Below are positions 15,001-21,000 of a stretch of DNA of 38,938 nt, piece after piece. The stretch is from an uncultured Methanosarcinales archaeon. GTDB lineage: Archaea > Nanobdellota > Nanobdellia > Woesearchaeales > JAGLXL01. Made by a program: the position numbers. Every line of letters starts with the position of its first letter. Position 1 is the first letter of the stretch. The stretch is from positions 1 through 38,938 of the forward strand of contig CAYYLB010000005.1 of the NCBI GenBank assembly GCA_964472345.1, written 5' to 3'.

Positions 15001-18000
15001 GGTTTCTTCGGCGCCGGCCATGCCAATGTCGGCCCGCACCTGATTGACGATGACGAGCTCTTCGACCTATTGAAGAAAGGGCACCGGTATGTGAAAGACG
15101 CAAAGAGGCGGATCATGGTCACGCATGTGCATCCCTCCGGCGGGCTGATTGAGAAGATGTCGTTTGCCGGCAGCGCTGCGGTTCGGAAGGCGCTCGAGCA
15201 GTTCAAGCCGGACCTGCATCTCTGCGGCCACATCCACGAGTGCGAAGGGATCGAGGACACGATTGCGGGCGTGAAGAGCATCAACGTGGGGAAAGGGGGG
15301 AAGATTATTGAGGTTTAGGGGGCGCGCTGCAAGCATGCAACAATACGATCCTTTAACTGCTGAAACGTACGCCAAAGTTGGAATAACAGGCACATGGGTA
15401 TGCGGCTTTGGGGAAGTTGCACGGGCGTTAGGTCATATCCAAGGTAAAAATGTGCTTGATTATGGTTCGGGAACGGGAAGGTCCGCGAGATTCTTGGCCG
15501 AATTGGGTGCTAGGGTTACTGGAGTTGACATCGATCCAGAGATGGTCCAGAAGGCACAACGACTTCATCCTGACCTTGAATTCCGGCTCCTTGCTGAAGA
15601 TAGACGGATACCCGCCGATGATCAGACCTACGACGTTGCTTTAAGCGCATTTATGCATGTCATGGTTCCGGATGGCAGGATACTGCAGAAGATAGAGAGT
15701 GAGGTGGAGCGCGTGCTGAAGCCTGGCGGCAAATACATCACATTGACTGCAAGTCCTGAGGTGTGGGGCCATGAATATATCTCATTCCTGAGCAGATTGC
15801 CCAAAAAGTTTTCCAGAAGGGGTGGCGAGCGCGTTTATGTGATGCTTAAAGAAAAGCCACCCATTGACGGGTACGACCATTTCTGGTCAGAGCGGGATCA
15901 TGTTAGGTGGCTGCAATCTGCCGGTTTTAGGAATGTCAAGGTGACCAAACCGCGGCCTGAGAACGACCTGTCATCCATTCCGCCGTTTATGGTTATTACT
16001 GCTTGTAAAGAATCACGTTGACCCTCAACTATCAATATGTTTTTTGTTAACTGAATAGGCCTAATTTATAATTATTGTTAATAGAAAACAAACCCGGTGT
16101 GTAGAGTGCCTGCTAAAATATCCACAGTCCACCAGCGCACCCGCCCCCATCACGAACGCCCCTCACGGCGTCTCTTCCTTCTTCGCCAGCGTGATCTCGA
16201 TGCTGCTCACGCGCACATTCCGGCCTTCGGTGTTGGTGAACTGCTCGCTGTCGATCCTGATGTCCTTCACCTCGACCGTGCCTTCGAGAAAACGCTTCGC
16301 CGCGACCTCGGCGACGTCAACGCCGCGGCTGATGAACTTGCCGCGCGCCTTGATGATGACCTCGCTTGCGCCTTTCGTCGTGAACTGCATCACCACGCCC
16401 GTCACATAGTTCATGAAGGGCTTGCTTCCGATGAAGATGCTGTTGTCGTCGCCCATGGCAGTCTCACCCCGCCGGCCTATTCCGCTGCCTGCTTGCGCTT
16501 CAGGCGTGTTGCGTAGCCTGCAATCATGTTGCGCAGCTTCTTGCTCTGCGCATCGACATAGGTGTCCACCACCCGCTTGTTCTCATCGAACGTCGTCGTG
16601 AGCTCATCACGGGAGGTCTGGACAAGCTCGCGGGTCACCCTCTTGATCAGCCGTGTCTTGATCCGTCCCATGCATGAGGCGCATCGCGGCCGCTTTATAA
16701 ACATTATGGCAAAGATTTAGTTACTAAAAAGTAGTAAAAATAGAAAAATATATAAAGGGGTGCGCCTTGCCGCGCCGCATGAACGCATCGATCGCACGGC
16801 TTCGTAGAAAAGTGGCCTACGCGGCAGCCCGTAGGGCGCAACCCCAGCCGCGTCAGCCGTCGAGCAGAGCTTTGCTTTGGGGCAAAGCTGCTGCTCCAGC
16901 TGACGGCTACGGCCACTTTTCTATAGAGCTGATCGCACTGATGGGCATCCTGGTGCTGCTCAGCGCCTGCGGCACGACGCAGCCCGAGGCTCCGGGCGCT
17001 CCCGGCAGCGGCGCTTTCCTGACATTTGAGGTTGATGCCGCCGAAACGTATGAGCCAAGCACCTCGATGCGCACGTATGAGGTTGTCACAAGGCAGAAAA
17101 GCGACCTGTACGGGCGCTGGCAGAAGCACAACGAGCTCAGGATCCAGCAGGACAAATGGGATGCGTGGAGCGATGACGGCGACGATGATGACGATGGGGA
17201 TTTCTTCGATGATGATGAGGAGGACGGGCGGACGGAGCGCAAGAGCGTCCGGAACAGCCCGCTCAAGCTCAGCTGCAAGCACCTTGCGTGCGATTAACGC
17301 CGAGGCGAACCTTTAAGAACTATCCTCAAGTTCGGCGTACCATGAACTACAAAGGCCTTACCTTGGACAGGTTCCAGGAGCAGGCGATCGCGGCCATCGA
17401 GAACCAGCATTCTGTCGTCGTTTCCGCTCCCACGGGCTCCGGCAAGACCCTTATCGCGGATTACATCATCAACCGGGACGTTGAGCGCGGCATCCGGGTG
17501 ATCTACACGGCACCCATCAAGGCGCTGTCGAACCAGAAGTACCATGAGTTCACGCGCGATTACGGCACGGAGCGTGTCGGGCTGCTGACGGGGGACATCG
17601 TCAAGAATCCCGGCGCCCCGGTGCTCATCATGACCACGGAAATCTACCGCAACATGGCGATCACCCACGACCCCATGCTCGATCAGGTTTCCTATGTCAT
17701 CTTTGACGAGATCCATTTCATCAACGACATCGAGCGCGGCTACGTCTGGGAAGAATCGATCATCTTCTCAAAACCTGAGGTGCGGTTTCTCTGCCTGAGC
17801 GCGACGATTCCCAATGCCGACGAGTTTGCGGAGTGGATCCATTCGATCAAGCAGCACCGCGTCGAGGTCATCCGCCACGACACGCGCGAGATTCCGCTGC
17901 ACCGCGCCTTGTACGACGCCGAGCTCGGCATCACGACGCCCGAAAAGATCCGCGACGTGATCGACATTCCCGATCATGCCTACGTCCGCGGCACATCCCA

Positions 18001-21000
18001 TCGCAGGCGTCCGCGCGTGCCCGCCCCCTCACCCGTCGAACTGATCAAGGAGATCCGCGACAAGCTGCCCTGCTTCTTTTTCACCTTTTCCCGCCAGCGC
18101 TGCCAGCAGCATGCAGCCGACCTCCTGAAAGCGAAGCTCTTCGCGCACAACCCCAAGGTCGTCGGCCTCATCCATGAGAAGCTCGCAGGCGCAGCGCCGG
18201 AAATCAGGCAGCTCGCATCCACGCGCCTGCTGCGCGAGCTGCTTCCCTACGGCATCGGCTTCCATCACGCGGGCCTGATCCCCGTCATCAAAGAGCTTGT
18301 CGAGGAGCTCTTTGCCGCAGGATTCATCAATGTGCTCTACACGACAGAAACCTTCGCGGTCGGCATCAACATGCCCGCGAAGACGGTCTGCTTTGAGTCA
18401 TTGCGCAAGTTTGACGGCGCCAACTTCCGCTTTGTGCATGCCAAAGAGTATTTCCAGATCGCGGGAAGGGCGGGGCGCCGCGGCATTGACAAGGAAGGCT
18501 TCGCCTATGCCATGGTCGACCGCCGCGACTTCGATTATCACCAGCTCAAGAGGGTCACGGGCGCCGACAGGGAGCCCATCCGCTCCCAGTTCCGGCTGAG
18601 CGTGAATACCATCCTCAACCTCATCAAGCGCCACCCGCGGCAGGAGATCGAGGAGATCCTGCACAAGAACTTCTACACCTTCCAGCGCATGCGGCGCTTT
18701 CCCCAGCGCAAGACGCCGTTTTTCTACACGTTCACCAAGCTCACCAAAAAGCTCGAGCATATGGGCTACCTCGCAGGCAACATTCTCACCGAGAAAGGCG
18801 AATTCGCCTCAAAGATGTACGCTGACGAGCTGACCTTTACCGAGCTGTTCGCAACAGACTTCTACGCTGATCTGGATGAGTACCAGCTCCTGCTGCTGAT
18901 CGCGGCGCTGTGCTACGAAGGGCGCGAGAAGACCAAGTTCCATAAGACACACCCCTCCGACATGCTCCGCACGCTGCAGAAGAAGCTCGCTGCCCATCCG
19001 TTCCTGCAGCGCGAGAAGCGGTTTGAGGAGCTCGAGGCGCTCACCGCGCTGGTGGATCCATGCTACCGGGGCAGGAACATCTTCGCGATTTTGCCGAACA
19101 CTTCGCTGCTCGAAGGCGACGTGATCCGCCTGTTCCGGCAGATGATTGACCGGATCGGCCAGCTGAAAGGCGCGACGCAGGACGCGCGCCTCGCTGCGAT
19201 GCTGCAGAGCTGCAAGGAGATGATCGTTTCCTGCCTGGCGGAGATCGATGCGGTTTAAGTGCGATCCCTGAAAACCAGATCAATCACGCACGCCACGGGG
19301 ATCAGGAGCCTGCGATGCTCCTCGGGGATGGTCGCTTCGATGCGGACTGCGTAGGTGTCCGCAGTGGTGAACAGCTCCCGGGCAGCACCCGCCCACTTCT
19401 TGCTGATGTCCACCAGCTTTTTGCCGCCGCCTGACATGATTGCAAAATGCCATCCGGCGAAGCTGCCTTCCATCGTCGCGAGCTGCGCGCCGCCCGGATC
19501 GAGCACCAGCAGTTTTGGCTTGCTGAGCCGGAATTTCTGCCGGTAGGTTCCGAGCGTCTTCCCGCTGGCGTCGAGCACGGCCACATGCGACATGAAGAAC
19601 GTGAACGGCCGCCTGAGCGTCACCAGCTTCGTTCCGCCGGCGTCGTACAGTGAAACGGTGAACGGGAGCATGTTTTTGTATTTCGTCATCCTGAAAAACT
19701 TCTGCAGGAAACTGATGCCCTCTTCGCGCGCCTCGCCGAGCTTCTTGCCCTGCGGCGTGAAGAACTCGTACACGTTGCCGAACTTGAGCACGCGCACCTG
19801 CTCCTTGACGATGATTTCCTCGGCATCGAAAAGGAATGTCATCGCCCTCCTTTGATACCACAGATATATAAATCCACGGCGAAAAACTCCTGCCTATGGG
19901 GGAGCTGCACCGTGTCCAGAAGCTGCTGAGCAACTGGGGCCGCTGCTCGCGGCGGAAAGCGGAGGAATTGATTGCAGAAGGCCGCGTCATGGTCAATGGC
20001 AGGGCGATTCACCTCGGCGACAAGGCTTCCGGTCAGGATACCATCACGGTCGATGGCGCCCGTGTCATGCCCGAGCGGCGCATCACGATCCTCTTCCACA
20101 AGCCCATCGGCTGCGTGACGGCAGTTGCGGACAAGCGCCAGAAGACCGTGCTTGATTATGTGCGGATCCCTGAGCGCGTCTTCCCCGTCGGCAGGCTTGA
20201 TTCCAACACCTCGGGATTGCTGCTGCTCACCAACGACGGGGACTTTGCCAACCATATGATGCATCCCCGCTATGAGGTCGAGAAGGCCTATGTCGCGCAG
20301 CTCGACAAGCCCCTGCAGGCGCGCGACGCAGCTCGCCTGAAGCAGGACGTGCGGCTCGCGGACGGCGCGGTTCGGATTGATCGCATGCGGCAGCTCCGCC
20401 CGCAGGTGATCGAGGTGGCGCTGCACGAGGGCAGGAAGCATGTTGTCCGCAGGCTGTTCGGGGCGCTTGGCTATCGCGTCCTTGCGCTGAAACGCACGCG
20501 GATGGGCCGCTTCGCGCTCGGCAGCCTGAAGGAAGGGGAGTGGAGATATATTGATACACGGAGCCGGTGAGCGCACCCAGGCCATTAGAACAGCGGCTGA
20601 TCGGGGCCTTGCCTTTTTTCCTGCTGCTCGCCGCGCAGGTACAGAAAATACCTGTCTAAGAGCGTAGGGCGTTCTGCTGGCATCGGATCGTAGATGTGCA
20701 CCTCAGCGGCAAAACGGTCAATGTACAGCCCGACGCCTATGCCACCATTACCGGCAATGAAGGCAACATACTCAACGCCATCTGACTCAGCGGGAATGTC
20801 TGGCCCAGCGAGAATAATAACCAAAGGCCCGCGGTACACGCCATCAAGGAACCGAAAGAAATCTCCTGCGAGGATGCCGGGGGCTGCCGGGAGCGAGCTC
20901 TTTAGGTGTACGCGGAGTGTCTGCCCTTCATCCGAAGGAGGGCCCAATGCCAGAACGTCAATCAAATCGCACAGTTCCTCCGATGAGATGGGGATCACTC

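Follow-up and report, generated by a model that had tools for sequence, protein, structure and literature searches.

The window, that is, the whole stretch of 38,938 nucleotides that was analysed, carries an open reading frame on the forward strand at 17342-19258, whose stop-free translation is 638 amino acids long. An earlier note on this DNA had described a DSHCT helicase of this length here, and both the reading frame and its Pfam matches confirm it. An alternative GTG start is found upstream at 17288, but the ATG is preferred since homologues begin there (consensus of their N-termini, MxYKGLxLDKFQ). As read from the sequence, the TATA-like TTTAAGAA in front of the ATG may be an archaeal promoter element, from which an mRNA with a short leader or none would start. 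Further upstream on the same contig, at a distance of 640-1180 bp, are Alba (PF01918, 3.6e-17) and ribosomal protein S17e (PF00833, 2e-14). The features of the locus are:

17312..17319, + strand: TATA-like TTTAAGAA, ending 22 nt upstream of the ATG (sequence reading)
17342..19258, + strand: CDS of the 638-aa arch-less DSHCT helicase, stop codon included (ORF, Pfam, PDB matches, homologue N-termini)
17342..17956, + strand: RecA1, about residues 1-205 (approximate borders; Pfam, homologue alignment, structure model, 6c90 alignment), with the Q motif F11/Q12 and motifs I APTGSGKT 29-36, Ia 56-66, II DEIH 122-125 and III SAT 153-155
17957..18031, + strand: basic flexible linker, about residues 206-230 (structure model; conserved R-rich consensus)
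18032..18541, + strand: RecA2, about residues 231-400 (approximate borders; Pfam, homologue alignment, structure model, 6c90 alignment), with motifs V TETFAVGINMPA 335-346 and VI QIAGRAGRRG 372-381 and the beta-hairpin RKFDGANFRF 355-364
18542..18766, + strand: winged-helix region, about residues 401-475 (6c90 alignment, insert-length count)
18695-18721, + strand: site of the arch insert of Mtr4, Ski2 and HelY-type proteins, here about residues 452-460 (22 residues between anchors)
18767..19255, + strand: C-terminal helical bundle (DSHCT, PF08148), about residues 476-638 (Pfam, homologues, structure model, 6c90 alignment)

Pfam matches are DEAD at residues 10-161 (95 bits), Helicase_C at 290-381 (26.1 bits) and DSHCT at 480-628 (56.6 bits against a gathering cut-off of 22.7, and 60.2 bits when the genome was scanned). 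Motifs Q, I, Ia, II, III, V, and VI are all intact and invariant in 25 homologues of 59-67% identity. The predicted structure (pLDDT 90.8, pTM 0.88) is a four-domain ring of RecA1, RecA2, winged helix, and helical bundle that lacks an arch, and residues 210-221 are its only segment with pLDDT below 50. A long helix (residues 591-611) aligns with the region of the MTR4 ratchet helix, whose name and role are described in PMC4267639; R596 is invariant in the same number of homologues (25). In a Foldseek search, the best match is the arch-less MTR4 6c90 (E 4e-48, TMq 0.84, TMt 0.77), and ranks 1-34 are exclusively Mtr4, Ski2, or FRH. The arch-less RecA1-RecA2-winged helix-DSHCT core proposed earlier is therefore upheld by the structure model and Pfam.

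The arch itself was looked for in two ways. The Mtr4 arch models PF13234 and PF21408 have no Pfam match in the 638-aa protein, and both are matched by the positive control, a plant Mtr4 (P0259). Since only 22 residues separate the anchors at the arch site, there is no insert. The corresponding length is 16-25 residues in all 15 rows of the archaeal clade described below, 236-521 in eukaryotes, 253-267 in an Asgard group, and 206-250 in Actinomycetota. Natural arch-less forms exist in bacteria too: 11 of the 17 rows of the bacterial tree group have 19-27 residues at this site, and such loci are found in Omnitrophota, Planctomycetia, and Fibrobacterota. An N-terminal extension is also absent, residue 7 aligning with the start of the helicase core. 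In eukaryotes, the arch and the N-terminal extension carry contacts with adaptors and partners.

Sequence searches agree with the fold. By phmmer against the PDB, arch-less human MTR4 (6c90) is matched at 1.7e-104 in a single stretch (residues 7-609 on chain residues 72-700), followed by full-length MTR4 (1.3e-98), Ski2 (1e-96 to 6e-91), ASCC3 (4e-52), Brr2 (6e-46), and Hel308 (1e-41), which reproduces the figures reported before. In bit scores, Mtr4 reaches 354, as against 181, 160, and 146 among Hel308, Brr2, and ASCC3 (146 being Hel308). The protein is thus a Ski2-like DSHCT helicase of the COG4581 type (Mtr4/Ski2/HelY), closer to this family than to Hel308, Brr2, or ASCC3. That Mtr4 heads both the Swiss-Prot and PDB lists is probably explained by the solved structures matched, among which the family has no prokaryotic representative.

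The best 120 homologues are 625-665 aa long with 100% coverage (99% in one), and apart from one at 97% they are 59-67% identical. Those that are named come from a Woesearchaeota or Nanoarchaeota archaeon, except for one 'archaeon', one 'bacterium', and one 'KSB1 bacterium', so the occurrence in Woesearchaeota and Nanoarchaeota claimed earlier stands for this set. In a sample of the order with at least 80% completeness, 129 of 251 genomes have DSHCT, consistent with the previous count of 395 of 822 Woesearchaeales. The arch-less clade is also represented in one Thermoplasmata order, by 7 of the 41 genomes sampled there. The helicase gene is single-copy and strongly conserved, its proteins are 43-61% identical across the order of the host, and within that order its presence is mostly all-or-none by family. 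These properties fit a housekeeping gene.

To place the protein, a tree of 62 rows and 631 columns was built with IQ-TREE (LG+C20+F+G4 PMSF; supports are bootstrap/SH-aLRT). Its rows were our own choice, with two fast-evolving eukaryote rows removed; 27 are metagenomic representatives without a name, and the clan of our protein includes 20 of these. The protein belongs to an archaeal arch-less clade (100/98) of Woesearchaeota, Nanoarchaeia, and Thermoplasmata. This clade is enclosed in a clan (100/99) in which the remaining named rows come from bacteria and have a short insert or none. On the other side of the 100/99 branch are the eukaryotic Mtr4/Ski2 proteins (a clade of 100/100), the Asgard group, and the actinobacterial HelY-type proteins. 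The same split appears in the quick tree, in which 18 rows are flagged for odd composition, and in a FastTree of 215 rows. When the archaeal clade is joined to the eukaryotes, the cost is 50.6 lnL and the AU test rejects the union (p-AU 0.0025), as it does the union with the Asgard group (p 0.0079), the groups of both tests having been defined after the first tree was seen. Rooted with Hel308, the tree has supports of 82-87 close to its root, and the outgroup branch is 3.8 long.

That the protein belongs to the eukaryotic Mtr4/Ski2 clade, as the earlier note had it, is contradicted by these trees and by the AU test. As for the bacterial relatives that it mentioned, the other named rows of the clan are bacterial, and the HelY-type proteins of Actinomycetota fall in the other clan. 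The protein is a DSHCT helicase of a bacterial-type clade and represents one branch within a large radiation of arch-less and short-insert forms in prokaryotes. Note that grouping with bacteria makes no statement on a bacterial origin or its direction, because the sister grouping of the archaeal clade inside the clan has low support (68/46). A proto-Mtr4 with a bearing on the origin of eukaryotes was considered and rejected, as the tree places this DPANN protein in the prokaryotic radiation.

What could such an enzyme do? The gene, domains, fold, motif integrity, phylogenetic place, and distribution were computed; for the RNA substrate, polarity, and cellular role we infer from the family. We consider it likely that this is a minimal DSHCT helicase of an archaeal subclade, in a clan otherwise bacterial in its named rows, acting as a general stand-alone RNA helicase in RNA turnover or maturation. 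By analogy with its relatives, the helicase would bind a single-stranded 3' tail of RNA, and the two RecA domains would hydrolyse ATP, pulling the RNA 3'-to-5' through the ring. The beta-hairpin of RecA2 would split the duplex, and the RNA would then pass the long helix of the C-terminal bundle. Having no arch, the enzyme would have no built-in platform for adaptors, which probably makes it a general stand-alone enzyme for RNA unwinding or RNP clearing.

An unlikely alternative is that the protein assists the archaeal exosome as its helicase cofactor, being a minimal analogue of Mtr4/Ski2 that unwinds structured RNA and feeds its 3' end into the Rrp4/Csl4 cap. Its family and fold are those of the eukaryotic exosome helicases, and the exosome genes reported before for contig C15 are confirmed there as an SBDS-Rrp4-Rrp41-Rrp42 operon. 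The RNase PH pair is present in 127 of the 129 helicase-positive genomes of the order sample. However, RNase PH genes are in 242 of the 251 genomes, and 115 of these 242 lack the helicase, so this co-occurrence is uninformative, and two of the nine genomes with no RNase PH match still carry the helicase. At seven archaeal loci, the helicase gene is not linked to exosome genes, nor was any conserved neighbour gene found at the helicase loci compared. The protein is also without the arch and N-terminal extension, and outside the archaea its nearest relatives come from bacteria, where the family is widespread and an archaeal-type exosome is not known. With an exosome that is near-universal, a helicase in half of the order, and no gene linkage, the idea raised in the earlier note has gained nothing. 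It is more doubtful still that the bare-core helicase docks on the Rrp4/Csl4 cap as a missing exosome partner in Woesearchaeales and some Thermoplasmata. If true, this would be helicase-assisted exosome decay outside eukaryotes, assembled from a bacterial-type helicase.

Similarly improbable is an enzyme that works mainly on DNA or RNA:DNA hybrids, in R-loop removal or in support of replication or repair, and not in RNA decay. HelY is reported in PMC8931766 to unwind RNA:DNA hybrids, and Hel308 and similar Ski2-like relatives work as DNA helicases. This genome encodes a separate Hel308 in two pieces, a split in the lineage that might leave room for another enzyme. The bit scores (354 to RNA helicases against 146 to Hel308) point the other way; both Hel308 pieces are present in all four Woesearchaeota genomes checked, and no repair or replication genes adjoin the helicase gene. 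Since the genome keeps its own Hel308, the protein is not a replacement for it. A helicase of a defence system (Hachiman HamB-like) or of another mobile element is very improbable: PADLOC HamB models match the helicase core with a top score of 96 bits and HamB 8vx9 is in the PDB search at 1.8e-21, but these matches are limited to the RecA core and far below Mtr4, no known defence-partner family is among the neighbouring ORFs scanned, and copy number, identity, and the all-or-none pattern by family are those given above. A bacterial contig misbinned into an archaeal genome was likewise tested and is scarcely credible, for although three close homologues are named 'bacterium', 'KSB1 bacterium', and 'archaeon' and the rest of the clan is bacterial, Alba and S17e are on the contig, its GC is close to that of the genome (57.2% and 56.9%; completeness of the genome 100%, contamination 0.31%), the 129 genomes with orthologues include some assembled into 1 to 4 contigs, and the contigs that carry close homologues reach 437 kb.

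The protein also bears on the known range of the family. As the earlier note quoted it, a 2024 survey of archaeal Ski2-like helicases does state that the Mtr4/Ski2 group is 'exclusively composed of eukaryal sequences' (PMC10946056). Its sample consists of 219 complete archaeal and 75 Asgard genomes with no bacteria, and it found no archaeal COG4581 protein. So described, this sample missed at least two archaeal lineages with COG4581 proteins, namely the arch-less clade, which about half of the genomes of a DPANN order have and which also occurs in the Thermoplasmata order above, and a separate full-length group in Asgard Hodarchaeales. No paper on the prokaryotic radiation of arch-less and short-insert DSHCT helicases was found in the literature searched. 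Our protein is a natural arch-less variant of a known family, and a compact candidate predicted to fold well. It raises the questions of what a bare Mtr4-type core does without the arch, and whether any prokaryotic 3'-5' nuclease employs such a helicase.

Compared with known systems, the protein shares with Mtr4 (MTR4/Dob1/FRH; 6c90) the DExH ring, and the motifs, beta-hairpin, and long C-terminal helix all align. Mtr4 differs in having an arch and an N-terminal extension, whereas in our protein 6 residues precede the aligned core, and in belonging to a separate clan. Ski2 has the same core and DSHCT domain (Foldseek TMq 0.83 to 4buj), but its chains, 976-1287 residues long, have an insert where the arch sits and a long N-terminal region, and it is in the eukaryotic clade. 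Hel308 is also a Ski2-like four-domain ring (TMq 0.73); it is more distant in sequence, and our protein scores 170 and 151 against NCBIfam cut-offs of 887 and 1200. The arch-less forms of Omnitrophota, Planctomycetia, and Fibrobacterota share both its clan and its 625-660-aa architecture. The forms of Bacillota and Poribacteria are in the same clan but have a short insert, and the short-insert forms of Melainabacteria are in the other clan together with Cyanobacteria. These bacterial arch-less and short-insert forms are 36-48% identical and have bacterial hosts, while the archaeal proteins make up their own clade. Finally, the HelY-type proteins of Actinomycetota are larger (850-940 aa), have 206-250 residues at the arch site, and share a clan with eukaryotes; our protein fits neither this size and insert nor a branching with Actinomycetota. 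HelY of Mycobacterium smegmatis is reported in PMC8931766 (citing Uson, Ordonez and Shuman 2015) to be an RNA-activated ATPase that acts 3'-to-5' on RNA loading strands. As the only prokaryotic DSHCT helicase with reported biochemistry, it is the best functional analogy for the protein described here.

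The helicase gene stands on the strand opposite to two archaeal-type neighbours, Alba and ribosomal protein S17e:

16163-16456 (-): Alba (PF01918, 3.6e-17), directly upstream of the helicase
16477-16704 (-): ribosomal protein S17e (PF00833, 2e-14), directly upstream of the helicase
17342-19258 (+): helicase, open frame of 638 codons

The other genes around it in the window are unrelated housekeeping genes, and tRNA and Rfam families have no match in the window. The helicase ATG is kept over an alternative GTG start 54 bases upstream, which would lengthen the frame, because the N-termini of 25 aligned homologues coincide with the ATG (MxYKGLxLDKFQ). 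A putative TATA-like element, TTTAAGAA, ends 22 nt upstream of it.

The product is an arch-less DSHCT helicase, as the earlier note had observed. Pfam finds DEAD (95 bits), Helicase_C (26.1 bits) and, at residues 480-628, DSHCT (56.6 bits; cut-off 22.7), and of NCBIfam models only Hel308 is hit, far below threshold (170 bits versus 887). When compared with PDB by phmmer, the helicase is closest to the arch-less human MTR4 6c90 (1.7e-104, a single stretch pairing residues 7-609 with 72-700), followed by full-length MTR4 (1.3e-98) and Ski2 (1e-96 to 6e-91). ASCC3 (4e-52), Brr2 (6e-46) and Hel308 (1e-41) are weaker. The phmmer values of the earlier note were reproduced exactly. An AlphaFold2 model built from a 41-row alignment has a pLDDT of 90.8 and a pTM of 0.88, with pLDDT <50 only at residues 210-221, a conserved basic linker. 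With this model Foldseek, too, puts arch-less MTR4 at the top of its list (E 4e-48, TMq 0.84, TMt 0.77), ahead of other MTR4, Mtr4, FRH and Ski2 chains, with Hel308 and Pol theta much lower (TMq ~0.73). Across 25 homologues there is no variation in motifs Q, I, Ia, II (DEIH), III, V and VI, in the RecA2 beta-hairpin (355-364) or at R596 of the long C-terminal helix; because of this invariance the helicase looks catalytically competent, judged from its sequence. Annotations of these proteins do not go beyond 'DEAD/DEAH box helicase' or 'superfamily II RNA helicase'.

The helicase belongs to an archaeal genome (1.26 Mb in 120 contigs, GC 56.9%) that is 100% complete with 0.31% contamination. The best 120 homologues have 625-665 aa and identities of 59-67%, apart from a single one at 97%, and those that are named come nearly all from a Woesearchaeota or Nanoarchaeota archaeon. 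A mis-binned bacterial contig is excluded by the adjoining Alba and S17e genes. Within the stretch, the Alba region is the DNA best conserved in genomes of the same family (76% versus 67% for the helicase), and its linkage and that of S17e to the helicase are not maintained there.

Two further regions of the contig are recorded here:

24650-28715 (+): SufB, spanning two overlapping frames (24650-26869 and 26787-28715), with two intein-like inserts that carry LAGLIDADG domains
31928-36741 (+): three paralogous ORFs, each ending in a PEP-utilising-enzyme mobile domain (PF00391)

GC is 45-49% in the region of the SufB inserts and 57-60% in the surroundings. NifU and an ABC ATPase alternate with the three PF00391 ORFs; this cluster lies downstream of suf.

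The genome retains a separate Hel308. It is encoded as two pieces on different contigs, C61 (5803-6387, -) and C7 (25443-26897, +); further pieces are at loci L092-L097. The N piece (model positions ~7-223) has ~225 aa in three genomes and lies in a 350-aa open frame in the query genome, and the C piece (~235-698) has 511-591 aa. Hel308 is split in all four Woesearchaeota genomes checked, and in a Thermoplasmata genome it is one whole gene (736 aa). Woesearchaeota Hel308 looks like a conserved split gene.

DSHCT is found in 129 of the 251 Woesearchaeales genomes with completeness of at least 80%, and in 107 of the 203 high-quality ones. Some of the genomes counted among the 251, both for DSHCT and for RNase PH (below), carry an unpublished flag (G105, G124, G169, G189, G191 and G193). 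No DSHCT open frame in the genomes scanned exceeds 760 aa, and therefore none can carry a full arch. In a phylum sample the helicase is present in 45/101 genomes (E <=1e-60, 43-61% identity); all 65 listed rows of this sample are from the same order, and the remaining 36 are negatives. Presence is mostly all-or-none per family (e.g., 9/9, 5/5, 5/5 and 4/4 versus 0/3, 0/3 and 0/3). An orthologue of 642-654 aa (45-48% identity) is found in 7/41 sampled genomes of the Thermoplasmata genome's order, and two of 14 control genomes, those of Synechococcus elongatus and Corynebacterium glutamicum, also score positive. In one genome of the order (G267:C2:34330-35883) the match is broken into two neighbouring parts, query 2-221 and query 223-478, of one 711-aa frame, which suggests a small insert or rearrangement in that orthologue.

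Relatives are numerous outside the order. Searching 1.84 billion cluster representatives with HMMER gives 2889 at E <=1e-30, with lengths forming a gradient from ~620 to 1262 aa. Among the representatives with recovered names are six eukaryotes, a Chloroflexi bacterium, a Nanoarchaeia archaeon, a Woesearchaeota archaeon and, from Asgard, a Candidatus Hodarchaeales protein of 1008 aa. When one genome per prokaryotic species is scanned, 587 of 603 candidate stretches are confirmed as relatives. The best 80 of these 587 comprise 74 bacterial loci, five from Woesearchaeota and one from Thermoplasmata (an arch-less protein of 643 aa, 45% identical). Among these 80 are arch-less proteins of 625-660 aa from Omnitrophota, Planctomycetia and Fibrobacterota; forms of Bacillota, Melainabacteria and Poribacteria have 680-819 aa, and those of Actinomycetota and Chloroflexota 850-1090 aa.

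The earlier note had placed the helicase in the Mtr4/Ski2 clade, which the phylogeny contradicts. The same main split recurs in three trees: a 215-row FastTree and two 62-row trees, one quick and one careful (both LG+C20+F+G4 PMSF, 631 columns). The FastTree took in the query and 10 close homologues together with loci proteins and representatives that reach 600 aa, leaving aside 12 loci with cut or doubtful ORFs. The 62 rows were picked to cover every group, with two fast-evolving eukaryotes removed; 27 are unnamed and 18 flagged for odd composition. Rows were chosen and AU groups defined once a first tree had been seen. In the careful tree one side holds eukaryotes (100/100, bootstrap/SH-aLRT), the Hodarchaeales group, Cyanobacteria/Melainabacteria, Chloroflexota and Actinomycetota. 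The opposite clan (100/99) has three parts: a group of Bacillota plus Proteobacteria/Myxococcota, one of Omnitrophota/Planctomycetota/Fibrobacterota/Poribacteria, and an archaeal arch-less clade (100/98) of the query, other Woesearchaeota, the Nanoarchaeia protein and the Thermoplasmata protein. The sister group of this clade has a support of only 68/46. Uniting the clade with eukaryotes is 50.6 lnL worse (p-AU 0.0025), and with the Asgard group 38.8 lnL worse (p-AU 0.0079).

Insert lengths at the arch site follow the grouping of the tree:

Residues at the arch site by group
Archaeal arch-less clade: 16-25 (15/15 rows)
Omnitrophota/Planctomycetota/Fibrobacterota/Poribacteria group: 19-27 (11/17 rows), 130-145 (other 6)
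Bacillota group: 64-142
Actinomycetota: 206-250
Asgard group: 253-267
Eukaryotes: 236-521

The query has 22 residues there between two conserved anchors and no match to the Pfam Mtr4 arch models, which bears out the absence of an arch insertion reported before. These models match just one of nine proteins scanned, the eukaryotic one. Rooting with Hel308 puts the arch-less clan (100) within the insert-bearing forms, which hints at loss or shortening of the insert; this reading is weak because the outgroup branch is 3.8 long and basal supports are 82-87. A separate DSHCT group encoded outside the window (P0230, P0227 and P0257; 895-1008 aa), which includes the Candidatus Hodarchaeales protein, has a 253-267-residue insert, lies on the eukaryote/HelY side and leaves the Pfam Mtr4 arch models unmatched.

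What the gene encodes is a DExH ring helicase of the DSHCT family, intact and conserved, that lacks an adaptor platform. By analogy with Mtr4/Ski2 structures, the ratchet helix and arch described in PMC4267639 and the HelY properties given in PMC8931766, it would engage RNA at a single-stranded 3' tail and move 3'-to-5' driven by ATP; the beta-hairpin would part the strands, and the C-terminal helical bundle would line the exit path of the RNA. Its likely role is general remodelling of RNA or RNPs in decay or maturation, with RNA:DNA hybrids as a live alternative target. That it serves the archaeal exosome as a cofactor is improbable. SBDS, Rrp4, Rrp41 and Rrp42 are consecutive on contig C15, so the genome does encode the exosome, as noted earlier. 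RNase PH (Rrp41/Rrp42) genes occur in 242/251 genomes of the order and Rrp4 in 31/31, which makes co-occurrence uninformative. The helicase is missing from 115 exosome-positive genomes and present in 2/9 without an RNase PH match; therefore it is not an obligate exosome partner. No conserved neighbour is found in seven archaeal loci or in bacterial clan members (among 80 loci, only Actinomycetota have common neighbours), and synteny is absent even within the query's own family. The predicted complex with the genome's Rrp4 (30-sequence Rrp4 alignment) scores 0.00, which counts neither way on binding. A defence-system helicase was considered and rejected.

PMC10946056, a 2024 survey of archaeal Ski2-like helicases, covers 219 complete archaeal and 75 Asgard genomes and no bacteria, and reports COG4581 (the Mtr4/Ski2/HelY-type group) as absent from the archaea surveyed; the exclusively eukaryal Mtr4/Ski2 group had been cited correctly. 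Among the matches listed, it alone joins DPANN or Woesearchaeota with Ski2, Mtr4 or HelY. PMC8204110 mentions neither helicase nor exosome, and a 2024 preprint notes Mtr4 in one Hodarchaeales guild. In the literature searched (subscription journals and supplements lay outside the search), no account was found of DSHCT helicases from archaea or of naturally arch-less ones. The archaeal arch-less DSHCT helicase is real, widespread and uncharacterised. It is not the eukaryote-like exosome helicase proposed earlier: its clan stands opposite the eukaryotic Mtr4 and Ski2 proteins.
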